The notes: generated from the sequence alone by a model not told the origin. 64,000 nt of DNA from Vicinamibacterales bacterium (GCA_048594885.1 JBMDXB010000082.1:18237-82236), one strand, 5' to 3'. Shown: positions 6,438 through 62,695, numbered from the stretch's first letter. Program-made: numbers and translations.

Positions 6438-7088
6438 TTACCTGCGCGAAGAGGCCCGGGCAAGCCCGGGCCCTACTGAGCCAGAATCTTCCGTAGGGGC
6501 CGGGCTTGCCCGGCCCGCGGCTGAATCCGGATCGTTGTTCGTAGGGGCCGGGCTTGCCCGGCCCGCGGCTGAATCCGGATCGTCGTTCGTAGGGGCCGGG
6601 CTTGCCCGGCCCGCCGCTGTAGGCGCCGGGCTTGCCCGGCCTGCAGCCGTCATCTTCTCAACCAACGCCGCGGCTTCCGCCATCGGATTCTCCTGGATGT
6701 ACTTCCGAATCCGCTCCAGCTCGGCGTCACTTCGAATGACCCGATCGTAATAACTACGCTGCCAGAGCCGCGAGGCGACGAGCCCTTCGCGCCGCGCGAG
6801 AATCGTCGTTCGTGATTTGCACGCCCGCATGACGTCAGGCAGCGACACGGCGACGCCGTCGAAGAGGAAGATCGCGTGCACGTGATCCGTCATGATCACG
6901 TGGTAATCCACTGTTACCGTGAGGAACCGTTGTTCGACTGCACACAGTTCCCGTTCGGCAAGAGCGGCGAGCGAGCCCTGCAGGATGGGACGGCGGTCGT
7001 GTGTGCAGACGGTGATGAAATACGCGCCTGGGGACTTATAGTCAAAGGTGGCGAGGCGAATGCGCCGCATGTTCCGATGACGTCGCAA
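6438..7088 (-). mobile_element. REP-associated tyrosine transposase (RAYT/TnpA-REP, HUH Y1)
   Basis: YFITVCT, MTDHVHAI (HUH), LWQRSYYDRVIR and YIQENP motifs; flanked by GTAG REPs. The start could be ATG 7070. Confidence 0.9.
6453..6642. repeat. GTAG-REP family 1 cluster, consensus GTAGGGGCCGGGCTTGCCCGGCCC (5 copies)
   Basis: Inverted copy at 6453-6476; direct copies at 6493, 6541, 6589 (48-bp period) and 6619. Confidence 0.92.
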
Positions 7089-11001: not shown

Positions 11002-12144
11002 GTGCAGCACTCCGACGTCATCGTCAAGCCTCGCGACGTGATGCCGCCGGGCGCCATGACGCTCCCGGCACCCTACTACGTCGATGCGCGCTACTTCGCG
11101 CGCGAAAAGGAGCTGCTGTTCGGCCGCATGTGGGTGTGTGCCGGGCGCCGCGAGCAGATCGAGCCGGCGGGCCGGTTCGTCGTCCGCGAGCTGCTCGGCG
11201 AGAGCATCATCATCACGACGAACGCCGATGGCCGCGTGCAGGCCTTCTACAACGTGTGCCGCCATCGCGGCACGCGGCTGTGCACCGAAGCAGAGGGCGC
11301 GTTCCCCGGCAGCATCCAATGCCCCTACCATGCGTGGACGTACGACCTGAGCGGCCGGCTCATTGGCGCCCCGCACATGGACGAAGTGCCGCACTTCAGG
11401 AAGGACGACTACCCGCTCCACCAGGTGCACGCGGACGAATGGGACGGCCACGTCTTCATCACGCTGGCGGAGGATCCGCCGCCGCTCCGCTCGCAGCTTG
11501 CGGATCTTCCGGACAAGTTCCGCGCGTGGCGGATGCAGGACCTTCGGCTCGGACACCGGATCGTCTACGACATCCAGGCGAACTGGAAGCTGATCGTGCA
11601 GAACTACAACGAGTGCCTGCACTGCCCCAATCTGCATCCGGCGCTGAACAAGCTGTCGCACTATCTGAGCGGCGAGAACGAGCCGCTGCGGCCGACCTAC
11701 ATGGGCGGCCGTATGGATCTGCGGCCAGGAGTGGAGACGCTGTCGATCGACGGCAAGTGCCCGCGGGCGTTGCTACCGGGCGTGGCTGCCGAAGACCTCC
11801 GGCGCGTCTACTACTATGCGATCTTCCCGAACATGTTCCTGAGCCTGCACCCGGACTACATGCTCGTGCACACTCTCTGGCCGCTCGCGCCGGATCGCAC
11901 CATCAACATCTGCGAGTGGCACTTCCATCCGCAAGAGCTCTCGCGCCCCGGGTTCCGGGCAGACGATGCGATCGAGTTCTGGGACATGACGAACCGGCAG
12001 GACTGGCACGTGTGCGAGCTGTCGCAGGCGGGGATCTCGTCGCGCGCGTACACGCCGGGACCGTACTCGAACCGCGAGGAGCTGCTCTACGCGTTCGATC
12101 GGATGATCGTCGCGCTGCACGAAAGCGCGAGCGCCGCGCCGTGA
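11002..12144 (+). CDS. Rieske non-heme iron oxygenase alpha subunit (choline monooxygenase/GbcA-like)
   Basis: NVCRHRG and CPYHAW Rieske ligands; NWK..NYNECLHCPNLHP and QDWHVCE mononuclear Fe site. Confidence 0.9.
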   Translation: MQHSDVIVKPRDVMPPGAMTLPAPYYVDARYFAREKELLFGRMWVCAGRREQIEPAGRFVVRELLGESIIITTNADGRVQAFYNVCRHRGTRLCTEAEGAFPGSIQCPYHAWTYDLSGRLIGAPHMDEVPHFRKDDYPLHQVHADEWDGHVFITLAEDPPPLRSQLADLPDKFRAWRMQDLRLGHRIVYDIQANWKLIVQNYNECLHCPNLHPALNKLSHYLSGENEPLRPTYMGGRMDLRPGVETLSIDGKCPRALLPGVAAEDLRRVYYYAIFPNMFLSLHPDYMLVHTLWPLAPDRTINICEWHFHPQELSRPGFRADDAIEFWDMTNRQDWHVCELSQAGISSRAYTPGPYSNREELLYAFDRMIVALHESASAAP

Positions 12145-12247
12145 CGCCCGCGGCATTCCGCAATCACGGCATCTCTATCGCCGGAATCGCCGCGCACGGC
12201 TGAATGCGACGGCGTCCGACGATCGCGTTCTGGCCCACGTGACGCAG

Positions 12248-12490
12248 CTCACAGGAGAAACAGGGAAGAGGAGAACAAGTTCTTTGCTCGAGATCGATTT
12301 CAGCGTCGTCATCCGCTCGCGATCCCCGACTCGTAGCGCGGCAGGCAACAAAGAGTTCTCCGCTTCTTCGGTGCTCGGAAATGAGAGCCGCTGGACGGGC
12401 AGACGGCCGGCTGCGCGATCAGGAAGGCACGAAGCCACGAAGACACGAAACCAACAGGGCTTCGTGCCTTCGCGCCTTCGTGTCTTCGTG
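12248..12490. repeat. Two intergenic inverted elements: degenerate purine/pyrimidine arms (12248-12385) and octamer arms CACGAAGN x4 / CTTCGTGN x4 (12420-12490)
   Basis: caggaaggcacgaagccacgaagacacgaaa ... cttcgtgccttcgcgccttcgtgtcttcgtg read directly from the sequence. Confidence 0.75.
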
Positions 12491-12640
12491 GGAGCCGCAG
12501 GCTGGCGTGGCCGCGGACTTTTCATGCTGCGGGGTGAGCGGAGCTCATGGTGACTCGTGTGAATGCGAGTCGCAGCAAGCACGAAACCCGGCGCGCCCGT
12601 GCCGCAACGTCGCAACTGACGAGCAGGTCTCGAGCCAACG

Positions 12641-13840
12641 TCACGCAGGCGGGATCGCCGTCTTCCTCTTCGGATTGAAGAACGGCGTGCTCACGACGGT
12701 GGCCGGCACACGATGCCGCACGGATTCCACGGTCACTTCCATCTGCAGCGTCGTGCCTTCGGCGTAGTGCGGCCGCTCGATCGTGGCGAGGGCGATCGTC
12801 TTCTTCAGCACCGGCGACCACGTCGTCGACGTCGCTTTCCCCACCTGACGGCCCGATTTGTAGACCGGAACCGCTACGCGTGAGGCGGTGGCGGCGACGG
12901 TTGGCGCCAGGCCCACAGCGTCGTAGATCTTCTCGACCTGGGTCCAGTCCACTTCGAGGCCGACGACCTGGCGCGCGTGGCCGCGCGCGCGCTCGTCGCG
13001 CAGCGCGCGCTGGCCGACGAACCGCGCCTTGTCTAGGCTGACGAGTCGCCCGAGCCCCATCTCGTACGGCGAGTACATCTGCGACGCGATCATGGCTTTC
13101 TTGCTGCTGAAGAAGTCGACCTCGATGAGCAGCAGGCCGGCCTCGATGCGCGCGACGTCGAGCGCCAGCATGCCGGCCGGCTTGATGTCGAACGCGCGGC
13201 CGCTTGCCATCAGCGCGTCCCACACGCGGACCGCGTCGCGGGCGGGGATCCAGATCTCGTAGCCGAGATCGCCGGTGTATCCCGTCCTCGAGATGTCGAC
13301 GTTGACACCGGCGATCGTCCCGTTCGTGACGCGGAAGTACTTCAGGCTGTCGATGTCCGCTCGAGCGACGGCGCGAAGAAGCCGCGCCGACGTCGGTCCC
13401 TGCAGCGCGAGCGCGGCGACGTCTTCCGAGATGTCCTCGATGTTGACCTCGAGACCCGCCGCGTTCTGCGTGAACCACCGCACACTCGGATCCGCAGCCG
13501 TCCACCGAAAGGTCTGCTCACCGAGTCGCGACACCGTTCCGTCATCGATGACCTTGCCGTGCTCGTCGCACCAGGGCGTGTAGAACACCTGCCCGATCGC
13601 CATCTTCGACACGTCGCGGGTGATCAGGCGATCGACGAGGCGCGCCGCGTCGGGCCCGGTGACCAGGTATTTGAAGAGCGGCGACACGTCGATCAGTGCC
13701 GAGGCGTTGCGGATCGCGTTGTATTCGTGCTCGTGATGGCTCTCGAAGGCGCTGACCGCGTAATAGCCGGACCATTCGCGATAGTTGAGGCTCTCGCACA
13801 GCGCGAACGTCCGCTCGTGGACGGCAGTTCCGATCGGCAT
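12641..13840 (-). CDS. GcvT-like aminomethyltransferase (folate-binding) family protein
   Basis: LIDVSPLFK, GKVIDDG, LQGP, SRTGYTGDLGYEIW and ARIEAG motifs. Confidence 0.9.
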   Translation of the reverse strand: MPIGTAVHERTFALCESLNYREWSGYYAVSAFESHHEHEYNAIRNASALIDVSPLFKYLVTGPDAARLVDRLITRDVSKMAIGQVFYTPWCDEHGKVIDDGTVSRLGEQTFRWTAADPSVRWFTQNAAGLEVNIEDISEDVAALALQGPTSARLLRAVARADIDSLKYFRVTNGTIAGVNVDISRTGYTGDLGYEIWIPARDAVRVWDALMASGRAFDIKPAGMLALDVARIEAGLLLIEVDFFSSKKAMIASQMYSPYEMGLGRLVSLDKARFVGQRALRDERARGHARQVVGLEVDWTQVEKIYDAVGLAPTVAATASRVAVPVYKSGRQVGKATSTTWSPVLKKTIALATIERPHYAEGTTLQMEVTVESVRHRVPATVVSTPFFNPKRKTAIPPA

Positions 13841-13857: not shown

Positions 13858-13995
13858 TGGAAGGAGCCTCGGCGCACCTGCTCATCAACGCCCCCCCGGC
13901 GCCACCGAGGCCCGCTCGGCGGTCTCGCGATGCCCTCCGTTTCTCCGTTTCTCCGTTTCTCTTTTTCAGCATTCAGCATTCAGCATTCAGCATTG
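13858..13995 (+). repeat. Composite repeat copy 1: ~75-bp core + (CTCCGTTT)n + (CAGCATT)n
   Basis: Direct-repeat similarity to 16540-16701. Confidence 0.8.
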
Positions 13996-16539: not shown

Positions 16540-16701
16540 TGGAAGGGAGCCTCGGCCCACCTGCTCATCCACGCCCGCCTCGGCGCCAACGAAGCCCGCT
16601 CGGCCGGCCTCTGATCTCCCTCCGTTTCCTCCTCCGTTTTCTCCGTTTCTCCGGTACTCCGTTTCTCTGTTTCAGCATTGAGCATTCGGCATTCAGCATT
16701 G
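16540..16701 (+). repeat. Composite repeat copy 2; the last CAGCATT-G supplies a TTG start for the next gene
   Basis: tggaagggagcctcggcccacctgctcatccacgcc... followed by CTCCGTTT and CAGCATT units. Confidence 0.8.
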
Positions 16702-18282
16702 CCTCACTACGACGTCATCGTCATCGGCGGTGGCCACAACGGCCTGACGGCGGCCGCGTATCTCGCGAAGGCCGGCCGCAAAGTGCTGGTGCTCGAGCGC
16801 CGCTACGTGCTGGGCGGCGCGGCGGTGACGGAGGAGATCTTTCCCGGCTTCAAGTACTCGGTCGCGTCGTACGTAGTCTCGCTGCTGCGGCCGGAGATCA
16901 TCCGCGAGCTCGATCTGCCGCGGCACGGCCTGGAGATCCTGCCGCTCGACGGCACGTTCACGCCCATGCCGGACGGCAACCACCTGTGGCGCGTCAACGA
17001 TCACGCGAAGACACGGCGGGAGATCGCACGCCACTCGAAGGTCGATGCGGAGGCGTACGACGAGTACGGCAAGGCGATGGTCGAGATGGGCCGCTTCGTG
17101 AAGCCGATCCTCGACATGACGCCGCCCGACCCCACGTCGCTCGATCCGCGCGGCCTCATGGATCTCTTGTTCCTGGGCCGCCGCTTCCAGGCGCTGTCCG
17201 ACCGCGACAAGTACAACCAGGTCCAGCTCATGACGATGAGCGCGGTCGATTTCCTCGACCAGTGGTTCGAGACGGACGTCCTCAAGGCGACGATGTCCGC
17301 GTCCGGGATCATCGGCACGTTTCTCGGCGTGCGGTCTCCCGGCACGGCCTACGTGCTGCTGCACCACTACATGGGAGAGATCGACGGCGCGTTTCGATCC
17401 TGGGGGCTGTCGCGCGGCGGAACCGGCGCCATCTCGAACGCCATCGCCGACGCTGCGCGTGAGGCGGGCGCCGAGATCCGTACGGAGGCTCCCGTCTCGA
17501 AGATCATCGTCAAGGACGCAGCGGCCGGGGGCGTCATCCTCGCGAACGGCGACTACGTCACCGCGAACGCGATCGCGTCGAGCGTCGATCCCAGCCTCAC
17601 CTTCCTGAAGATGGTGGGCGAGGAGCATCTCCCCGGCGAGTTCGTCGAGGACATCCGCCGCTACAAGTTCCGCGGCTCGTCAGGGAAAGTGAACCTGGCG
17701 CTCGACACGCTGCCGGACTTCACGTCGATGCCGGGCCCCGGCGCTCACCTGCGCGGGGCGATCTCGATTTCACCGGCCGTCGACTACATGGAACGCGCAT
17801 ACGACGATGCGAAGTACGGGCGGTACTCGCGACGTCCATATATCGACATCGTCATTCCGAGCCTGACGGACCCGTCCGTGGCGCCGCCCGGCAAACACGT
17901 GATGTCGTGCTTCGTGCAGTACGCGCCGTATCACCTGAAGGACGGCACGTGGGACGAGCACAGCGAGGCGTTCGGCGACACCGTGATCGACACGATTGCG
18001 GAGTACGCGCCGAACATCCGCGACATCATCCTGCACCGCCAGGTCGTGACGCCGCTCGACCTCGAGCGCGAGTGGGGACTCACCGAAGGCAACATCTTCC
18101 AGGGTGAGCTCACGCTGGAGCAGCTCTTCTTCCTCCGCCCCGCGCCCGGTTGGGCTCAGTACCGGACGCCAATTCGCAACCTCTATATGTGCGGATCCGC
18201 GACCCATCCCGGCGGCGGAATCATGGGCGCGCCGGGGAGGAACGCGGCGCGGATGATGCGGCGCGAAGGAGTTAGGAGTTAG
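16699..18282 (+). CDS. Phytoene desaturase-like (CrtI/PYROXD2 family) FAD oxidoreductase A
   Basis: VIGGGHNGL FAD motif, GNIFQGE, LYMCGSATHPGGGIMG. Start TTG 16699 inferred. Confidence 0.88.
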   Translation: MPHYDVIVIGGGHNGLTAAAYLAKAGRKVLVLERRYVLGGAAVTEEIFPGFKYSVASYVVSLLRPEIIRELDLPRHGLEILPLDGTFTPMPDGNHLWRVNDHAKTRREIARHSKVDAEAYDEYGKAMVEMGRFVKPILDMTPPDPTSLDPRGLMDLLFLGRRFQALSDRDKYNQVQLMTMSAVDFLDQWFETDVLKATMSASGIIGTFLGVRSPGTAYVLLHHYMGEIDGAFRSWGLSRGGTGAISNAIADAAREAGAEIRTEAPVSKIIVKDAAAGGVILANGDYVTANAIASSVDPSLTFLKMVGEEHLPGEFVEDIRRYKFRGSSGKVNLALDTLPDFTSMPGPGAHLRGAISISPAVDYMERAYDDAKYGRYSRRPYIDIVIPSLTDPSVAPPGKHVMSCFVQYAPYHLKDGTWDEHSEAFGDTVIDTIAEYAPNIRDIILHRQVVTPLDLEREWGLTEGNIFQGELTLEQLFFLRPAPGWAQYRTPIRNLYMCGSATHPGGGIMGAPGRNAARMMRREGVRS

Positions 18283-18308
18283 GAGTTAGGAGCTAGGAGC
18301 TAGGAGGA
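18267..18308 (+). repeat. Left arm: (AGGAGYT) x5 + AGGAG
   Basis: aggagtt x3, aggagct x2, aggagga; contains the stop of the upstream gene and the RBS of the next. Confidence 0.95.
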
Positions 18309-18311
18309 GAG

Positions 18312-18686
18312 ATGGACCGCGAACCGGCGCGAAGATTCGAAGATCTCGTCGTATGGCAGAAGGGACACGCGCTCGTTCTGCGCGTGTACAAGCTGACCAA
18401 GGAGTTTCCTCGCGAAGAGTTGTTCGGTCTCGTCGACCAGATGCGCCGCGCAGCAGTCTCGGTGCCAGCAAACGTCGCGGAAGGCTTCTCAAAGAGAGGA
18501 CGGACGGACAAGGCACGGCTGATGAACGTTGCCCAGGGGTCGCTCGAGGAACTCAGGTACTACTTCATTCTCGCGCGCGACCTGGCATACCTCCCGGCCG
18601 AGACGAAGTGGCCGGACCTCGATGAGGTTGGCAGGTTGCTCGGAGCGTACGTCCGCGCGTTGCGAGCAGCAGCTCCTAGCTCCTAG
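18312..18686 (+). CDS. Four-helix-bundle protein (23S rRNA IVP / TIGR02436-like family)
   Basis: FEDLVVWQK, FPREELFGLVDQMRRAAVSVPANVAEG and AQGSLEELRYY motifs. Confidence 0.93.
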   Translation: MDREPARRFEDLVVWQKGHALVLRVYKLTKEFPREELFGLVDQMRRAAVSVPANVAEGFSKRGRTDKARLMNVAQGSLEELRYYFILARDLAYLPAETKWPDLDEVGRLLGAYVRALRAAAPSS

Positions 18687-18726
18687 CTCCTAGCTCCTAG
18701 CTCCTAGCTCCTAGCTCCTAGCTCCT
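18671..18726 (-). repeat. Right arm: (AGCTCCT) x8, reverse complement of the left-arm unit
   Basis: Eight perfect heptamers ending 3 nt before ATG 18730. Confidence 0.95.
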
Positions 18727-18729
18727 GAC

Positions 18730-20247
18730 ATGGACCCAGCGATCATCATCGGCGGCGGCCCCAACGGTTTGACGGCGGCGTTCTACCTCGCAAGCACCGG
18801 CCTGAAGACGCTCGTGCTCGAAGCGCGCGAGACGCTCGGTGGCGCGGCGACGCTCGCGCATGCGATTGGACCGATACGCCCCGCGATCGTGCGGGAGATG
18901 CGGCTCGAGCAGCACGGCGTCGAGTTCGTGCAGCCGGAGCCGCGGCTCACGGCGCTCACCGCCGACGGCCGCGCGCTCGTGTTCAGCAGCGACGTGGCGC
19001 GAACCGCAGACGCAATCCGCGCCTTCTCGGCGAAGGACGCCGATCGCTATCCGGAGTTCTGCGACACGCTGGCGCGGCTCGGCGCGTTCTTCGCCGGCAT
19101 CCTCGATCGTACGCCTCCATCGCTGAATCCTTCGTCGCCCGGCGAGGCCTGGGACCTGCTCCGCACCGGACGCCGATTCCGATCGCTCGGCCGCAAGAAC
19201 GGCTTCCGGCTGCTGCGATGGGCGCCGATGGCTGCCGCGGATCTCGTCGGCGAGTGGTTCGAGACCGACGTCCTGCAGGCGGCGATCGCGGCTCGCGGCG
19301 TCTACGGCACCGCGCAGGGTCCGTGGTCGGCAGGGACGGGCGCGGTGATGCTCCTTCAGGCCGCGGCGGATCCGTTGCCTGGCGGCAGCAGCCTGACGGT
19401 GAACGGAGGGGCCGGCGCGCTGATGAAGGGCATGGCCGCGGCCGCGCAATCGGTGGGCGCCGAGATTCGGACCGGCGCGACGGTATCGCGGATCCTCTGC
19501 AAGGATGGACGCGCGTCCGGCGTGGTGCTCAACGATGGCACCGAGATCGCCGCACGCGCCGTTGCGTCGAGCGCGGATCCGAAGCGCACGCTGCTCGATC
19601 TGCTGGATCCGTTCGAGCTCGATCCCGACTTCACGACGAAGGTCCGCAACTATCGCTGTCCGGGCAGGGCGGCGCACGTCCTTCTGCGGCTCGCCGCCGC
19701 GCCGGCATTTCCCGGTATCGAGGGGGCCGCCGCGCCGTTCAGCGGGCGGCTCCACATCGGGCCGTCGATCGACTACCTCGAGCGCGCGTTCGACGCATCC
19801 AAATACGGCGAGCTTCCGCAGGAGCCATATCTCGACGCCGCAATGGTTGAACCCGATTTGCTGTCGGTCGCCGCGCACTTCGTGCCCTATCGGCTCGCGC
19901 GCGACCTGGACTGGAGCACCAAGCGCGACGAGCTCATCACTATCGTCCTGCGCACCCTCGAGGCGCACTCCCCCGGCATCAGCCGGCTCATCCAGGATTC
20001 GCTGGTGAGGACGCCTGTGGATCTCGAACGCGAATTCGGGCTGACGGGTGGCCACATTTTTCACGGCGAGCCGTCGCTGGACCAGTTGCTGACGATGCGA
20101 CCGATTCTCGGATGGGCGCAGTACGCGACGCCGATACGGAATCTCTATTTGTGCGGCGCCGGGACGCACGGCGCGCTCGGCATCACGGGCGGTCCTGGCC
20201 GTAACGCGGCGCGCGAAATCGTCCGGCACCTCCGGTCCTTACGATAA
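18730..20247 (+). CDS. Phytoene desaturase-like FAD oxidoreductase B (paralog of 16699-18282)
   Basis: IIGGGPNGL, GHIFHGE and LYLCGAGTH motifs. Confidence 0.88.
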   Translation: MDPAIIIGGGPNGLTAAFYLASTGLKTLVLEARETLGGAATLAHAIGPIRPAIVREMRLEQHGVEFVQPEPRLTALTADGRALVFSSDVARTADAIRAFSAKDADRYPEFCDTLARLGAFFAGILDRTPPSLNPSSPGEAWDLLRTGRRFRSLGRKNGFRLLRWAPMAAADLVGEWFETDVLQAAIAARGVYGTAQGPWSAGTGAVMLLQAAADPLPGGSSLTVNGGAGALMKGMAAAAQSVGAEIRTGATVSRILCKDGRASGVVLNDGTEIAARAVASSADPKRTLLDLLDPFELDPDFTTKVRNYRCPGRAAHVLLRLAAAPAFPGIEGAAAPFSGRLHIGPSIDYLERAFDASKYGELPQEPYLDAAMVEPDLLSVAAHFVPYRLARDLDWSTKRDELITIVLRTLEAHSPGISRLIQDSLVRTPVDLEREFGLTGGHIFHGEPSLDQLLTMRPILGWAQYATPIRNLYLCGAGTHGALGITGGPGRNAAREIVRHLRSLR

Positions 20248-58546: not shown

Positions 58547-59533
58547 ATGAGCAGAACAGCGCGCGTGCCGTTTGGGCCGCGGATCGCGGTCCCCTCGCAG
58601 TTCCTCTCGGTGCTCGACTTCGATGACGGGATGCTCGTCGCCTGCCTCGATCTCGCGGCCCAGATGAAAGCGGCGCGCGCGGCCGGCATCGCGCACGACA
58701 AGCCGCTGTCTGGTCTGCACATCGGGCTCCTGTTCGAGAAGCCGTCGCTGCGGACGCGTTCGACGTTCCAGATCGCGGTGCACGAGCTCGGAGGCGACGT
58801 CATCGAGCCGCCCGCCAACGTCGTCCTCGGCGGCCGCGAGACGATCGAGGACGTCGCGCGCAACCTGGAACGCTGGGTGTTCGGCGTCGTGATGCGGACG
58901 TTCGCGCAGTCGAAGCTCGAGGCGTTCGCCGCGGCGGCGCCGCGTCTGAAGGTCGTCAACGCGTTGACCGACGAGGAGCATCCGTGTCAGGCGCTCGCCG
59001 ACTGTCTCACGCTCATCGAAAAGCTGGGGGGTCTGCGGGGCCGCACGATCGCCTACGTCGGCGACGGCAACAACGTCGCGACTTCGCTGGCGCAGGCGGC
59101 GCTGATGCTCGGCGCCAACGTCCGCATTGGATCGCCGCGCGGCTGCGAGCTGCCGGCAACCGTCGTCGACGCCGCTCTTGCCGGTGCGGCGACGGGGGCC
59201 ACGCTCGTCCAGACGAACGATCCGGTCGAGGCGGTGCGCGGCGCCGACGCGGTCTACACCGACGTGTGGACGTCGATGGGCCAGGAGGCGGAGGCCGCTC
59301 GGCGCCGGGCGCTGTTCGTGCCGTATCAGGTGAACAGCGAGCTGATGGCGCACGCGGCGGACGGCGCGCTGTTCATGCACTGCCTGCCGGCGCACCGCGG
59401 CGACGAAGTCACCGACGAGGTGATCGACTCGGGGGCGTCCGTCGTCTTCGATCAGTCGGAGAACCGGCTCCACGTGCAGAAGGCGTTGCTCGCGCTGCTC
59501 GCTGGCCGCTGGCCGCTGATCGCTGATCGCTGA
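58547..59533 (+). CDS. argF: Ornithine carbamoyltransferase
   Basis: FEKPSLRT, HPCQ, DVWTSMG and HCLP motifs. Confidence 0.94.
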   Translation: MSRTARVPFGPRIAVPSQFLSVLDFDDGMLVACLDLAAQMKAARAAGIAHDKPLSGLHIGLLFEKPSLRTRSTFQIAVHELGGDVIEPPANVVLGGRETIEDVARNLERWVFGVVMRTFAQSKLEAFAAAAPRLKVVNALTDEEHPCQALADCLTLIEKLGGLRGRTIAYVGDGNNVATSLAQAALMLGANVRIGSPRGCELPATVVDAALAGAATGATLVQTNDPVEAVRGADAVYTDVWTSMGQEAEAARRRALFVPYQVNSELMAHAADGALFMHCLPAHRGDEVTDEVIDSGASVVFDQSENRLHVQKALLALLAGRWPLIADR

Positions 59534-59551
59534 TCGCTGATCGCTGATCGC
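59501..59551 (+). repeat. Heptamer array GCTGGCC x2 + GCTGATC x5 supplying the argF stop
   Basis: Read directly; TGA 59531-59533 lies inside a unit. Confidence 0.9.
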
Positions 59552-59582: not shown

Positions 59583-60599
59583 ATGCGGCAGGCTGTGATC
59601 CCTCGGCATGGACCGCCGGACGTGTTCGAGATCCGCGAGCGGCCGGATCCCGTTCCGGGCGACGGCGAGCTGCGCGTGCGCGTGCGCGCGATCGGCGTCA
59701 ACTTCGCCGACGTTCTCGCGCGGCTCGGGCTGTACCCGGACGCGCCGCGGCCGCCCGTCGTCGTCGGCTACGAAGTCGCCGGCCACGTCGATGCGACGGG
59801 AGACGGCGTCACCGGCTTCAGCGCCGGTGATCGCGTCGTCGCGCTGACGCAGTTCGGCGGCTACTCCGACAGTGTCGTCGTTCCCAGCCGGCAGGCGTTT
59901 CACTTCCCGGAGAATCTCAGCGACGCGGAAGCGGCGGCCGTGCCGATCAACTACCTGACGGCCGCGATCGCGCTCTACAAGATGGCGGCGCTGGCGCCCG
60001 GCGAGACCGTGCTCGTGCACAACGCGGGCGGCGGCGTCGGCATCGCCGCGACGCAGCTCGCGCGGCTGCGGCGCGCCACCGTCATCGGCACCGCGTCGAC
60101 GCACAAGCACGCCGCGCTGCGGTCGTTCGGCATCGAGCATCCGATCGACTATCGCCACGCGAACGTGGCGGAGGAAGTCCGCAAGCTGACGCGCGGCCGC
60201 GGCGTCGACGTCGTGCTCGATCCGATTGGCGGCACCAGCTTCATCACGAGCTACCGGCTGCTCGCGCCGCTGGGGCGCCTCGTGATCTTCGGCCTCTCCG
60301 ACGCCGCACCCGGCGAGCGCTACAACGCGTGGCGCGCGTTCCGCGCCTGGTGGTCCACGCCTCGCTTCGACCCGATGTCGCTCATCAACCGCAACCGCGG
60401 CGTGTTCGGCCTGCACATCGGCCACCTGTGGAGCGAACGCGCGCAGCTCGTGCCGCTCATGGAGATGCTGATCGCCGAACTCCGCGCCGCCCGCCTCAAG
60501 CCCGTCGTCGCACGGACCTTCCCCCTCGACCGAACAGCCGATGCCCACCGGTTCATCCAATCACGCCAGAATATTGGTAAGGTCGTTTTGACGACATAG
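59583..60599 (+). CDS. MDR-family NADPH:quinone oxidoreductase-like protein (VAT-1-like)
   Basis: GVNFAD, GYEVAG, AGGGVG and NIGKVVL motifs. Confidence 0.9.
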   Translation: MRQAVIPRHGPPDVFEIRERPDPVPGDGELRVRVRAIGVNFADVLARLGLYPDAPRPPVVVGYEVAGHVDATGDGVTGFSAGDRVVALTQFGGYSDSVVVPSRQAFHFPENLSDAEAAAVPINYLTAAIALYKMAALAPGETVLVHNAGGGVGIAATQLARLRRATVIGTASTHKHAALRSFGIEHPIDYRHANVAEEVRKLTRGRGVDVVLDPIGGTSFITSYRLLAPLGRLVIFGLSDAAPGERYNAWRAFRAWWSTPRFDPMSLINRNRGVFGLHIGHLWSERAQLVPLMEMLIAELRAARLKPVVARTFPLDRTADAHRFIQSRQNIGKVVLTT

Positions 60600-60734
60600 A
60601 TCGATTTCGGATTGCCGATCGTCGAGTGCGGATTGACGGGATTGGCGATTGGGGATTGGGATTGAGGGATTGGGGATTGGATTGACGGTTGACGATTGGG
60701 GATTGGATTGACGATTGACGATTGGCGATTGGCG
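60597..60734 (+). repeat. Left arm of a GATTG-based heptamer array (terminal inverted repeat)
   Basis: 60597-60664 matches the reverse complement of 62628-62695 at 66 of 68 positions. Confidence 0.95.
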
Positions 60735-60771
60735 TAGATGCGGTCTCAATCACACGATCGGCGCACGGTTC

Positions 60772-62517
60772 ATGCCTGCCTTGGCATGCCTGGTGTTGGC
60801 AGGCTCCTTACTCCGCGCGGCGCCGCTACGGAACGAGACGCCTCTCACGACGGCTCCGGCCGGACCGTTAACCGTCGTACTGGCACATCGCGACAGCCCG
60901 TACCGTTCACTCGCTCAACAGATTGCCGCGCTCGAGTCCATTCCTGTTGTGGAGTCGCTCACTGAGGCGCTCACACTGGAGCCTGCCTTTCTCCTGTGGG
61001 TGGTTGCACCAACGGAGCTGTCCGACGTAGCCGTCACGGCCTTCAACCGCACGCTCGAACGGGCGTCACCACGTCCTGCGGCAGGGCTCATCACGGCATC
61101 GACGGTCGCTCGCGCCCGCGGTCTCTATGAACGCGCGCGCGTAGCCAGGGGCGACCGGACCGCGACGGTGCTCGGGGAGGACGTCTTCACTGCGGCTGCA
61201 CTCGTCGTGGAGACGACAGCCGACCGCCGACAATCGCGCCCGCTCGCCCGGACAGCAGACATCCTGGGGTTTCTCACGAACGTCGATTACGTCCATTACT
61301 CCGGCCACGGCGGCAACGGCTACTGGCGACCTGTCCCGAACGAGCGATTCGCCGCTCACGATGTGCCGCGCCTAGGGCCGGTCATCGTCAGCACCATGGC
61401 CTGCCAGACGACACGCATGTGGGAAGGCGGTTCGATCGCGCTACGAATGGTCGACGAAGGAGCCGCCGCGTATTCAGGCTTCTATTACAGTCCAATGGCC
61501 GGGTTCCAGATAGGCGAGGAGGACGGGCCGTTCCGCTACAGTTGGCCGCAGGTCCCAATCGGGTACGTCATTGAGGCGATGAACGTCGGGGCTGGGAAAG
61601 GCTACGCGAGGACTCCATTTCATCTGCTCCTCGGAGATCCGCGTATCGCCCTCCGGGAGCAGCCCCCCTGCCGCTTGCTGGACCACGGCGAGTCGGACGG
61701 CGTGCGGCGGGTCTCATGTTCGGATGCACCTGCAGGACTGGTCCCTCTCCGCATTTGGGGAGGAGCCCGGTACGCCTTCGTCGAGATTCCGGGCGTTACG
61801 GCCGTGTGGCGCCAGGAACCGTTCTACAACCGGCGCGTGCAGATGGCGCCGATTGGCGAAGATCTCATCGTCCTCGTGGCCCATCGTGGCGGTGACGTGC
61901 GGATGGCGTTACGGCGCCGCCCACCGCTTGCCTGGCTTGCCGTGGATCCACTGCGAGATGCCCTCGATGATCTCTTGGTCAGCAAGGCTGACCGGCGGCA
62001 CGGCGGGGATGCAATCGCGCTCTTCCTGGCCGCGGTGGCGGCGACAGGCACGGTCCTGCGCGTCAGGCGGAAGCAATTGGGGCGGGCCCATATGGCCGCC
62101 GCCGGCGCACTCGGCGTCGTCGCGGGCCTCCTGCATGCCGCGTACGCGCTCGCGCGGCAGCCGGACGTCGTCGTCGTGGCAAAGGACTTGGTCTTCAGCC
62201 CGCTCGCCGCGGTAGGAACGGGCGTGCTGGCCGCCTGCGGGGCGCTGCTGTTTCAGGCCGCTGCATCGTGGCGCGGACGTCTCCTCGGACTCGTGACCGC
62301 GACATCGGTCGGCTGGATCGGAGGGCTCATCGCCGTGGTCATGGTAAGCATGACGAACAGCGTCATCGCCGCGAGAACGGGCATCGGCGTATGGATCTAC
62401 AGAGCCGACCTCCACCCCTTCATTCTCTCCGCTCTTGGATGCGGCCTCTACGCCCTCGTATTCCTCGCGGCAGCGCGACTGACGGGAAAGGCGCCTATCG
62501 ACTGCAGCGGTCGATAA
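60772..62517 (+). CDS. Putative clan CD (gingipain/C25-like) cysteine peptidase with C-terminal multi-TM domain
   Basis: Signal peptide; YSGHGG (His), TMACQT (Cys) and LLLGDP; ~5 hydrophobic C-terminal helices. Confidence 0.68.
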   Translation: MPALACLVLAGSLLRAAPLRNETPLTTAPAGPLTVVLAHRDSPYRSLAQQIAALESIPVVESLTEALTLEPAFLLWVVAPTELSDVAVTAFNRTLERASPRPAAGLITASTVARARGLYERARVARGDRTATVLGEDVFTAAALVVETTADRRQSRPLARTADILGFLTNVDYVHYSGHGGNGYWRPVPNERFAAHDVPRLGPVIVSTMACQTTRMWEGGSIALRMVDEGAAAYSGFYYSPMAGFQIGEEDGPFRYSWPQVPIGYVIEAMNVGAGKGYARTPFHLLLGDPRIALREQPPCRLLDHGESDGVRRVSCSDAPAGLVPLRIWGGARYAFVEIPGVTAVWRQEPFYNRRVQMAPIGEDLIVLVAHRGGDVRMALRRRPPLAWLAVDPLRDALDDLLVSKADRRHGGDAIALFLAAVAATGTVLRVRRKQLGRAHMAAAGALGVVAGLLHAAYALARQPDVVVVAKDLVFSPLAAVGTGVLAACGALLFQAAASWRGRLLGLVTATSVGWIGGLIAVVMVSMTNSVIAARTGIGVWIYRADLHPFILSALGCGLYALVFLAAARLTGKAPIDCSGR

Positions 62518-62524
62518 TCTGAGA

Positions 62525-62695
62525 TCGCCAATCGCCAATCGCCAATCGTCAATCCCAATCGCCAATCCCAATCGCCAATCGTCAATCCAATCGCCAATCG
62601 TCAATCATCATTCCAATCAGCAATCGCCAATCCCAATCCCCAATCGCCAATCCCGTCAATCCGCAATCGACGATCGGCAATCCGCAATCGATCTA
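62525..62695 (-). repeat. Right arm of the heptamer array (CAATCGC/CAATCCC/CAATCGT)
   Basis: Inverted relative to 60597-60734; ends on the TAG of the S9 gene. Confidence 0.95.

Follow-up and report, generated by a model that had tools for sequence, protein, structure and literature searches.

A small gene of the PF05635 family that lies between two inverted heptamer arrays at positions 18267–18730 of the window (the whole 64,000-nucleotide stretch analysed) points to a widespread, little-described mobile cassette akin to the inserts of 23S rRNA. The host is an acidobacterium (subgroup 6) with a 7.5-Mb, 96%-complete genome. We put at about even the chance that the cassette belongs, as an old resident copy, to a widespread foldback-type selfish class, built like the ORF-bearing intervening sequences (IVS) of 23S rRNA, in which each member would comprise one PF05635 gene between two inverted arrays of short tandem repeats, nearly always with a 7-nt unit. 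A single anatomical rule, in which the gene lies between inverted heptamer arrays, few arrays occur without the gene, and gene-less copies share the termini of gene-bearing ones, ties together PF05635, the IVS and the heptamer repeats.

To our knowledge, structures of PF05635 proteins have been available since 2006 without a function, and the family is among the commonest unexplained small proteins of Bacteroidota, Cyanobacteria, Acidobacteriota and candidate phyla. How the rRNA IVS arose and spread has, as far as we know, been an open question since the early 1990s, and likewise the meaning of the cyanobacterial heptamer repeats. The searchable literature, which leaves aside subscription journals and database family comments, yielded only a heptamer note on the IVS of a single species, Coxiella, and an earlier description of the cassette may exist.

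Anatomy of the cassette, its protein and its predicted transcript

The cassette is located at the junction of two oxidoreductase genes, A and B, with the following features:

16678–18282, plus strand: gene A, an FAD oxidoreductase of the CrtI/CrtO kind (ORF list; 534 aa as listed)
18267–18306, plus strand: left (5′) arm, (AGGAGYT) x5.7 (Tandem Repeats Finder, inverted repeat, sequence)
18302–18307, plus strand: AGGAGG, likely ribosome-binding site of the cargo gene (sequence; predicted function)
18312–18686, plus strand: cargo gene P, 124 aa, PF05635 / TIGR02436 (Pfam, NCBIfam, AlphaFold2 model, Foldseek, pN/pS)
18671–18726, plus strand: right (3′) arm, (AGCTCCT) x8.0 (Tandem Repeats Finder, inverted repeats, RNA fold)
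18730–20247, plus strand: gene B, 505 aa, paralogue of A (ORF list, Pfam)

The left array is scored by Tandem Repeats Finder as 5.7 copies of AGGAGTT with 96% matches, and consists of three AGGAGTT units, two AGGAGCT units and a final AGGAG; the right array comprises 8.0 copies of AGCTCCT with 100% matches. The layout given in the initial annotation, with a heptamer array, a 124-aa ORF and an inverted heptamer array between two operon genes, is confirmed by Tandem Repeats Finder and the ORF list, although its description of the arms as perfect holds for the right arm and not for the left. The left arm is purine-rich and contains TAG in all frames together with the Shine-Dalgarno-like AGGAG, and the right arm is the reverse complement of the left unit and pyrimidine-rich, with a CTCCT that resembles the anti-Shine-Dalgarno sequence. 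Because seven is not a multiple of three, tandem copies of a unit with TAG and AGGAG place a stop in every frame and also supply a ribosome-binding site.

Gene A terminates within the left arm at a TAG (18280–18282), P begins just inside that arm with an ATG at 18312 located 4 nt after the AGGAGG (18302–18307) at the arm's inner end, and P ends in the right arm at a second TAG (18684–18686). Gene B starts at an ATG (18730) 3 nt past the right arm, and the sequence before it contains neither a purine-rich stretch nor a Shine-Dalgarno sequence of its own. All of this agrees with the earlier proposals that the left unit both ends the upstream gene and carries the Shine-Dalgarno sequence of the cargo, that the right unit ends the cargo, and that the downstream gene starts 3 nt later without its own ribosome-binding site. 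The left junction is crossed unchanged by contigs from four public DNA runs (one study, which may include the source sample), and there is no rRNA match within positions 17000–20000.

No second ORF is present in the cassette, which encodes only the PF05635 protein and no transposase or recombinase of a known family. P scores above the curated cut-offs of both PF05635 (E 3.9e-33; 114.3 bits, cut-off 33.8) and TIGR02436 (E 1.4e-30; 105.7 bits, cut-off 24), and its AlphaFold2 model (pLDDT 92.9) has four helices (residues 4–29, 40–59, 64–90 and 103–120), as anticipated from its first description as a four-helix-bundle protein of the 23S IVS family. Foldseek places 2GSC (TM 0.78, 40% identity; phmmer 2.9e-19) nearest to the model, followed by 2RLD (TM 0.65), each with five chains, and then by the Avd structures 4DWL and 8UB7 (TM 0.63–0.65); Avd is present in the DGR RNP. 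With pN of 0.16–0.29 versus pS of 0.66–0.83 among the orthologues compared, P is under purifying selection.

The arms form a 40-nt inverted repeat that is 93% complementary, with several registers possible, and within the cassette (18267–18726) they align through 37 Watson-Crick and three G·U pairs, all three mismatches being G·U in the sense RNA. The RNA from 18230 to 18760 is predicted to fold with a 40-bp stem in both the MFE and centroid structures (z = −6.04, matched by 0 of 100 shuffles), in line with the stem of about 40 bp suggested earlier. The arm pairs of 117 loci comprise 3956 Watson-Crick, 116 G·U, 155 A·C and 307 transversion positions; since the mismatches have no excess of G·U, there is no sign of sense-strand selection on an RNA helix, and the mismatch pattern fits a DNA-level process at least as well.

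The two strands of the arms are not equivalent. Read in the direction of the P gene, the 5′ arm is rich in purines at 58 of the 65 diverse loci that depart from 0.5 (66 scored), a Shine-Dalgarno-like motif occurs in 36/99 5′ arms versus 7/99 when read antisense, and stop codons are mildly enriched (73/99 versus 61/99 antisense). The asymmetry in purine content and Shine-Dalgarno-like motifs argues for a function at the transcript level. The ends of upstream genes and the starts of P genes fall inside the arms, and the genome has a gene for RNase III (G000:C160:49847-50230). The locus was found in no RNA run. Preserving operon coupling cannot be the general purpose of the cassettes, since only eight of the 34 loci (out of 38 in this and related genomes) at which rough GC3-based gene calls recovered both neighbours are co-directional with both; 13 lie between convergent genes, nine between divergent genes, and three are antisense to both.

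Heptamer arrays around PF05635 genes

The genome contains 883 arrays of period 7 or 8, ranging from 3.5 to 48 copies, so that a single array is not rare. All six inverted pairs of neighbouring arrays that are 364–553 nt apart contain a PF05635 match, and all 11 PF05635 loci of the genome adjoin tandem arrays; ten are flanked by an inverted pair, with ten different units among them, and the eleventh, a remnant, has a clear array on one of its sides. The position of PF05635 genes between inverted arrays is more than chance.

The same arrangement is found well beyond this genome. Tandem Repeats Finder arrays are present on both sides at 23, on one side at five and on neither side at two of 30 PF05635 loci in this and related genomes, and the corresponding numbers for 80 loci spanning about 20 phyla are 53, 22 and 5. 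The inverted-repeat score exceeds the highest of 67 displaced controls at 66 of these 80 loci, 133 of their 147 arrays have a period of 7, and array density near them is nine times that beyond 400 nt. The objection considered in the initial annotation, that homologous genes may generally not be repeat-flanked, thus fails, with arrays on both sides at 23/30 and 53/80 loci. None of 20 other loci checked lies inside an rRNA gene.

Eight plasmid loci were also read. Heptamer arms are present on both sides in Nostoc punctiforme, Trichormus variabilis, Calothrix brevissima, Picosynechococcus (in which the cassette is located between cas10 and cmr3), Azospirillum and Riemerella, and the copies of Nostoc PCC 7120 and Gemmatirosa have an array on the downstream side only.

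Array abundance was compared with PF05635 content in seven genomes (240–400 kb sampled from each except the window's own genome). Four genomes with 17, 4, 5 and 11 PF05635 matches have 148, 68, 65 and 118 arrays of period 7 or 8 per Mb respectively, and the values are 2.5, 0 and 10 in three genomes that belong to the same order and lack PF05635. P identity and the similarity of the arm units are correlated (r = −0.28; reached by 0 of 2000 label shuffles), and an acidobacterial MAG and Trichormus have an identical arm unit at 72% P identity. The pattern of one P per repeat family was not significant in a test (p = 0.069).

The oxidoreductase junction and mobility of the class

Gene A matches Pfam Amino_oxidase (7.2e-17) and, under the curated cut-offs, the NCBIfam models CrtO-like (4e-94) and crtI_fam (3e-36); orthologues with 84–89% identity are present in 57 of the 61 genomes of the family. 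Gene B matches Pfam DAO (1.9e-14) and Amino_oxidase (9.8e-11) and is 42% identical to A in a search with A.

Among 30 A–B junction loci examined, five contain an intact cassette gene, one a gene in two frames and three a remnant, and at 19, including a same-genus genome, A and B are adjacent (−4 to 35 nt apart), with arm scraps retained at some. The adjacency of the two oxidoreductases in relatives, proposed earlier as a check, is therefore observed, and fixation of the cassette in all relatives, which would have counted against a mobile element, is not (5/30 intact). P orthologues with 64–73% identity occupy the junction in L033, L050, L054 and L057, remnants are present in L032, L039 and L046, and a sister species is without the cassette at this site. 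The arm units covary between orthologues (AGGAGCT/AGCTCCT, AGGAGAC/GTCTCCT and GGAAGTC/GACTTCC). The arms match only two to three places in the genome, taken to be the cassette's own arms, and one array in the genome has an identical unit. Because there are no other copies of the arms in the genome and the same site is occupied in several genera, the mobility of this particular cassette is historical; judging from these sequences it is an old resident and no recent insertion, and has decayed or been lost in most lineages.

Other gene-bearing cassettes of the genome are accompanied by dispersed copies. Places matching their termini number 107–117 for the C73 cassette, 54–56 for C35, 112 for C137 and 29 for C83. 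Thirty-three short elements of about 96 nt carry the GTC..GAC ends of the C73 cassette, the GATTGCG family has a specific terminal signature in common with the C35 cassette, and there are hundreds of derivatives without the gene. The arms are part of the element and move together with the gene, and copies that lack the gene but retain the same termini multiply within the genome.

The C83 site, at the junction of a kinase and a regulator gene, is a clean empty site in G001, of the same genus, and in G003, G005 and G011; in G010 a sister cassette with the same AGTAGGC arms is found one gene further on, after the regulator gene. A single intergenic site is occupied by a different element in each of three genera. 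Target-site duplications were not detected in the 26 of 33 AATGCTG elements (exact GTC..GAC ends) tested, in which a 2-nt direct repeat occurs in only two, as by chance, and no transposase or reverse transcriptase could be recognised. The A–B cassette has the terminal inverted repeats of MITE/foldback-type elements and their presence/absence polymorphism (A and B adjacent at 19/30 loci; clean empty sites for the sister cassette C83), and lacks the dispersed same-termini copies that C73, C137, C35 and C83 have. Mobility of the cassette class is supported by these comparisons. The earlier suggestion of a mobile element accordingly stands for the class, through the empty C83 sites, the relocated copy in G010 and the multi-copy gene-less derivatives, but not as a recent insertion at the A–B junction.

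Known systems and alternative explanations

Like the ORF-bearing 23S rRNA IVS of Leptospira and Coxiella ('S23p' ORF), the cassette contains a PF05635-family ORF inside a stem of about 28–40 bp, and the IVS-like architecture put forward initially, with the ORF enclosed by a long stem of terminal inverted repeats, is upheld. Unlike the IVS, it is located between protein-coding genes, outside rRNA and thus not in a 23S rRNA helix, it has a long arm of pure tandem repeats on either side, the arms give stop and start signals to neighbouring genes, and there are hundreds of gene-less derivatives. Passages of a report on Coxiella describe tandem heptamers (GACAGAT x2–3) just before the start of the IVS ORF, with a copy number that varies between strains, and cutting of the stem by RNase III at the first heptamer; they attribute to Ralph and McClelland 1993 the view of the IVS as a mobile element whose ORF serves mobility (PMC4990558).

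The cassettes are similar to eukaryotic FB transposons in having inverted terminal repeats built of variable-number short tandem repeats, and to bacterial MITEs and REP-BIME as short multi-copy hairpin elements with fixed termini, but differ from FB and MITE elements in having no known transposase, no target-site duplication and an all-helical bundle of 120 aa as the sole protein. FB transposons have long inverted repeats of short tandem repeats in variable number, and most copies are gene-less with few bearing genes. Mazel et al. are said to have described, in 1990, the STRR of heterocystous cyanobacteria as tandem 7-nt intergenic repeats present many times per genome. The heptamers described here may be comparable, and the plasmid PF05635 genes of Nostoc punctiforme, Trichormus variabilis and Calothrix are heptamer-flanked; however, the 883 arrays of period 7 or 8 are those of an acidobacterium, and the units seen around PF05635 genes presumably differ from the classical STRR1–3 units. 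STRR might be arms or derivatives of such cassettes. The searchable STRR literature has no report linking STRR to a gene or to inverted pairs.

If the A–B cassette is an old copy of a foldback-type class, its insertion between the two oxidoreductase genes, which are translationally coupled paralogues, would date to a common ancestor of several genera of the family. Pairing of the arms in the transcript would give a 40-bp helix that brings the stop codon of A beside the start of B, and by analogy with the rRNA IVS this helix may be a substrate of RNase III. Loop-out of the cassette, masking of its own ribosome-binding site and coupling across the stem, as suggested initially, are likewise hypothetical. 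The boldest step concerns P, which probably assembles as a pentamer, as do its crystallised relatives and the nucleic-acid-binding Avd, and may be a trans-acting factor that recognises the repeat arrays, possibly with one 7-nt unit per subunit. Spread or tolerance of the arrays would depend on P, and this dependence would account for both the purifying selection on P and the near-absence of arrays where P is lacking. A wider proposition is tentative and we regard it as somewhat unlikely, namely that PF05635 is the signature and sole protein of a large unrecognised class of prokaryotic foldback elements with tandem-heptamer inverted termini, that its pentamer reads one 7-nt unit per subunit and drives or licenses gene-less spread without a classical transposase or reverse transcriptase, and that the 23S rRNA IVS, the cyanobacterial STRR and the hundreds of genome hairpins are products of one system.

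The inverted arrays could instead act only in DNA, as single-stranded hairpins or cruciforms in transposition, replication slippage or gene conversion, comparable to hairpin-ended IS200/IS605, REP/RAYT or integron attC sites, such that the RNA stem is a by-product and P acts on DNA. This explanation accommodates the lack of a G·U excess among arm mismatches (116 G·U versus 155 A·C), the joint change of both arms between orthologues, as intrastrand gene conversion would give, the lack of target-site duplications, as with single-strand transposons, the occurrence of cassettes in every orientation to their neighbours, and the wide variation in array length (3.5 to 48 copies). We consider it unlikely, because the 5′ arms are strand-asymmetric (purine-rich at 58/65 loci; Shine-Dalgarno-like motif in 36/99 sense versus 7/99 antisense), the arms contain the ends of upstream genes and the start of P, the cassettes have no associated HUH or other recombinase, and the rRNA IVS stem is, in passages of PMC4990558, a demonstrated site of RNA processing.

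The recurrence of the same architecture around the PF05635 genes of about 20 phyla, with units that are unrelated, and of an identical unit with a 72% identical P in Acidobacteriota and Cyanobacteria, is difficult to reconcile with a domesticated host feature, in which slippage-grown arms make a hairpin for regulation or stabilisation, P is an ordinary gene of the host, and nothing is or was mobile. Such a feature would be compatible with the single copy of the A–B cassette, its presence at the same site in several genera, the purifying selection on P, and the similarity of the left unit to the native gene A end of relatives without the cassette (e.g. gggaggagttag in L045), but is already strained by the clean empty sites, the relocated sister cassette, the multi-copy families with termini common to gene-bearing copies and the nearly array-free genomes without P, and is improbable. 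That P is the Avd accessory protein of a DGR, with the repeats as template and variable regions, is scarcely credible. The structural relation to DGR Avd noted at the outset does hold, P being a four-helix bundle of about 120 aa like Avd (TM up to 0.65) with weak matches to bAvd PF22296 (33.8 bits, cut-off 40) and Avd NF033474 (41 bits, cut-off 80). Both Avd models are nonetheless under their cut-offs, the neighbours are oxidoreductases, the repeats are 7-nt tandem arrays with no template/variable pair, and the reverse transcriptase profile PF00078 has 0 matches in the 96%-complete genome, in which control profiles were detected; DGR membership is refuted for this genome by the absent PF00078 matches and the Avd scores.

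For genome annotation, a foldback-type cassette would explain both the PF05635 genes wedged in conserved operons (two oxidoreductases, kinase/regulator and cas10/cmr3) and the neighbouring genes that end or start inside repeats.

The cassette at the junction of genes A and B

The cassette belongs, as an old member, to a widespread class of foldback-type elements that is built like the ORF-bearing intervening sequences (IVS) of 23S rRNA. It lies between two paralogous FAD oxidoreductase genes of the CrtI/CrtO kind (A and B) and contains a gene, P, coding for a PF05635 / TIGR02436 four-helix-bundle protein, which is bracketed by inverted tandem arrays, the left (5′) and right (3′) arms. The features are as follows, with repeat values from Tandem Repeats Finder (TRF):

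16678-18282, + strand: gene A, with its TAG stop within the left arm
18267-18306, + strand: left arm, AGGAGTT x5.7, 96% matches
18312-18686, + strand: P, a 124-aa ORF, with its ATG 4 nt past AGGAGG and its TAG stop within the right arm
18671-18726, + strand: right arm, AGCTCCT x8.0, 100% matches
from 18730, + strand: gene B, starting 3 nt past the right arm

The two arms form 40-nt inverted repeats that are 93% complementary, with several registers possible, and the full 40-bp stem is present in the predicted RNA fold of the region (z = -6.04). No purine-rich stretch is seen in the sequence preceding the gene B start. The arrays, inverted arms, 124-aa ORF and stop and start placements agree with their description in the initial annotation. 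The only Rfam match within 17000-20000 is a sub-threshold sRNA away from the arms. A search of sequencing runs for 17800-19300 returned four DNA runs, all from one study, and no RNA runs; their contigs cross the left junction unchanged, and none of the pieces, which are short and of low depth, spans the cassette or joins A to B without it.

Gene A is present in 57 of the 61 genomes of the family, and the A/B junction was surveyed at the 30 best loci. The two oxidoreductase genes adjoin in relatives as anticipated: at 19 of the 30 loci, including that of the same-genus genome, they are separated by -4 to 35 nt, often overlapping (GTGA, TTGA), and the cassette is therefore not fixed among relatives. 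Intact P is found at five junctions (our own, L033, L050, L054 and L057), the four other copies having 64-73% identity to the P of the window. P is split over two frames at one locus, situated at a contig end (L040), arms and a piece of P are retained at three (L032, L039, L046), and two loci contain other inserts with no similarity to P. Scraps of arm sequence remain at several empty sites (e.g. 'ctcctga ctcctgc ctcct'). The arm units vary among orthologous cassettes yet remain complementary (AGGAGCT/AGCTCCT, AGGAGAC/GTCTCCT, GGAAGTC/GACTTCC), and P is under purifying selection, since comparison of its orthologues gives pN of 0.16-0.29 versus pS of 0.66-0.83. The cassette is old at this junction. 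These pS values are higher than those of the adjoining end of gene A (0.48-0.64), which could reflect weaker codon bias in P or exchange of the cassette for a related one.

Tandem arrays and PF05635 genes in this and other genomes

The genome containing the window (7.46 Mb in 176 contigs, 66.8% G+C) has 883 non-overlapping tandem arrays of period 7/8, which fall into 112 unit classes and amount to 118 arrays per Mb. The closest relative with a name is a MAG labelled 'Acidobacteria bacterium gp6'. Arrays no more than 5 kb apart form 526 neighbouring pairs, 168 of them inverted; 131 of the inverted pairs are gene-less hairpins with 0-249 nt between the arms, and all six with a gap of 364-553 nt enclose a PF05635 gene. 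The PF05635 model has 11 matches in this genome, every one adjoining tandem arrays. Inverted arrays flank ten of them, with a different unit at each (AGGAGYT, AGTAGGC, GGTCCCK, AATGCTG, GATTGSG, GGGTAAA, CCAAGGG-type, CGCTGAG, GGGAGCCG and one 9-mer), and the 11th is a remnant that retains a clear array on only one side. The copy with GGGTAAA arms (G000:C107:73577-73873), whose unit is shared by 63 arrays of the genome, is probably a pseudogene because of an in-frame TAG. The notion of one master gene per repeat family was discarded as evidence: the 11 loci do fall in 11 exact-unit classes, but 6.9% of 100,000 class-size-weighted trials match this by chance, which is not significant.

Among 30 PF05635 loci of this genome and 20 relatives, TRF identifies arrays on both sides of 23, on one side of five (two of these at contig ends) and on neither side of two. 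Scanning a single genome for each species gave 592 confirmed relatives, the best 80 of which span ~20 phyla, and arrays are present on both sides at 53 of these 80 loci, on one side at 22 and on neither at five. Both counts speak against the possibility that homologues generally lack flanking repeats. Within the same best 80 loci, the inverted-repeat score is over the maximum of 67 displaced controls at 66, the period is 7 in 133 of 147 arrays, and array density adjoining the PF05635 gene is 9x that more than 400 nt away. Units of 10 and 11 nt occur at two Bacteroidales loci. The inverted-score threshold of 28 was set with 300-nt flanks and gap penalties of -5/-2, and since the arm alignment of 117 loci used longer flanks and gap penalties of -7/-3, its count of relatives with scores above 28 (23 of 28) is indicative only. 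Twenty other PF05635 loci (16 from candidate phyla) have no Rfam match at gathering score, and none of them is in an rRNA gene.

Three same-order genomes without a PF05635 match (G014, G015 and G017; samples L149-L188 and L209-L228) have one, zero and four period-7/8 arrays in 400, 320 and 400 kb, and the counts are 36 in 243 kb, 27 in 398 kb and 26 in 400 kb for genomes with 17, 4 and 5 matches, respectively. That tandem arrays accompany the PF05635 gene is suggestive only, because the comparison comprises seven mutually related genomes, all but the window's own represented by samples. Across 91 loci, P identity and arm-unit similarity are correlated with r = -0.28, a value reached by none of 2000 label shuffles, with base composition uncontrolled; the unit TCAGAAT is common to an acidobacterial MAG and Trichormus, with P identity of 72%.

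Protein matches include 40 plasmid records, 17 of them from Nostoc. Eight plasmid loci were examined; copies in Nostoc punctiforme, Trichormus variabilis, Calothrix brevissima, Picosynechococcus, Azospirillum and Riemerella have heptamer arms, and those of Nostoc PCC 7120 and Gemmatirosa have only a downstream array. The N. punctiforme PCC 73102 copy is at 1617-1982 of pNPUN01, and that of T. variabilis ATCC 29413 is at 60378-60743 of plasmid C. The plasmid copy of Picosynechococcus sp. PCC 7003 (L273; NZ_CP016476.1, 126543-126899) has GGAGATA-type arms and is located within a type III-B CRISPR operon, between cas10/cmr2 and cmr3, with the cmr3 ATG directly 3′ of the right arm.

Mobility and gene-less derivatives

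The proposal that the cassette is a mobile element is supported for the class, which has empty sites, a relocated sister and multi-copy termini, but less so for the cassette under study, which is old and whose arms match only 2-3 places in the genome. The 45-nt termini of other gene-bearing cassettes of this genome have 107-117 (C73), 112 (C137), 54-56 (C35), 29 (C83) and 15 (C107) genome matches. The ends of 33 short elements of ~96 nt (GTC-AATGCTG...CAGCATT-GAC) are identical to those of the C73 cassette, and the GATTGCG family and the C35 cassette have a non-repeat terminal signature in common. An AGTAGGC-armed cassette occupies a kinase/regulator junction that is clean and tight in four other genomes, namely G001 of the same genus ('cagTAAgaagATG'), G003, G005 and G011, and G010 has a sister cassette with AGTAGGC arms after the regulator gene. 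The arms belong to the mobile unit; no target-site duplication was seen at the elements examined.

A 532-nt intergenic site in the window (12124-12655) contains an octamer hairpin at 12423-12490, (GAAGCCAC)x3.9 / (CTTCGTGC)x3.9. Its counterpart is ~60 nt in G001 and G003, containing a small AAGGGTG hairpin in G001; G005 has a gene-bearing PF05635 cassette with CGATAAG-type arms at this site, and no array is present there in G003 or G011.

Other repeats are scattered through the window. The same compound array, (CTCCGTTT)n + (TTCAGCA)x4.3 + GAC, follows two similar segments at 13935-13994 and 16619-16700 and looks like a second repeat fused to half of an AATGCTG-family element. Long inverted arrays at 60640-60734, (GATTGGC)x14, and 62524-62690, (ATCGCCA)x24.6, surround a 1.8-kb stretch that includes a 600-aa ORF (60715-62517) whose sole match is a sub-threshold Peptidase_C25; the pair may flank one large cargo or be two independent elements. 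A (CGCTGAT)x8.4 array at 59493-59551 lies exactly where an ORF (58547-59533) meets a zinc alcohol dehydrogenase gene (59583-60599). At 6476-6619 there are ~3 tandem copies of a 48-nt repeat, each with a G+C-rich palindrome (GGGGCCGGGCTTGCCCGGCCC); this repeat is REP-like and has no relation to the heptamers.

Possible roles of the arms and of P

Besides the predicted stem, several features favour a role of the arms in RNA. On the strand that encodes P, purines predominate in the 5′ arm at 58 of the 65 diverse loci that depart from 0.5 (66 scored; mean 0.68). Among 99 5′ arms, SD-like motifs are present in 36 versus seven in the antisense reading, stop codons are weakly enriched (73 versus 61), and all three frames are closed in 33 versus 19. 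Neighbouring genes terminate, and P begins, within the arms. An RNase III gene is present in the genome, and RNase III cleavage at the first heptamer is described for the Coxiella IVS stem in PMC4990558.

The cassette would, as first proposed, loop out in the transcript, mask its own RBS and keep A and B coupled across the stem. The 5′ arm was aligned to the reverse complement of the 3′ arm at 117 loci with mismatches scored equally (L092 was omitted as its right flank is too short, and the remnant C136 is outside the arm statistics), giving 116 G.U, 155 A.C and 307 transversions; selection on a sense-strand RNA helix is unsupported by these mismatches, which show no G.U excess. All three arm mismatches in the cassette under study are G.U. 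Cassettes are found in every orientation relative to neighbouring genes by rough calls (stop-to-stop ORFs, GC3 >= 0.75; diverse loci excluded from the count). We infer loop-out, masking and coupling rather than observe them, because of the lack of wobble excess, the occurrence of all orientations, the weak stop enrichment and the absence of the locus from RNA runs.

The predicted structure of P is a confident four-helix bundle, nearest to 2GSC and to 2RLD from Bacteroides thetaiotaomicron (five chains each) and then to Avd, the accessory protein of diversity-generating retroelements (DGRs), alone and in the DGR RNP. P is not part of a DGR, since Avd models score below their cut-offs on P and a PF00078 search of the genome returned no reverse transcriptase. 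P could bind the arrays, with one 7-nt unit per subunit.

The overall interpretation in the initial annotation is partly supported: it stands as to the likeness of the class to ORF-bearing rRNA intervening sequences, but there is no wobble excess and co-directional placement is not general. Those intervening sequences have the same build as the cassette class, the reach of which extends beyond rRNA. The class rule, this reach, the gene-less derivatives and the array-gene link appear to be absent from the searchable literature. Full-text searches found no paper with a general link between PF05635 genes and inverted heptamer arrays, except for the Coxiella IVS paper, in which the ORF of the IVS is described as preceded by two or three heptamers (PMC4990558). 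A DGR review, in its treatment of PF05635, mentions the resemblance to Avd and nothing further (PMC10053308), and a table of a Nostoc paper (PMC8491059) includes alr0549, annotated there as four helix bundle protein.
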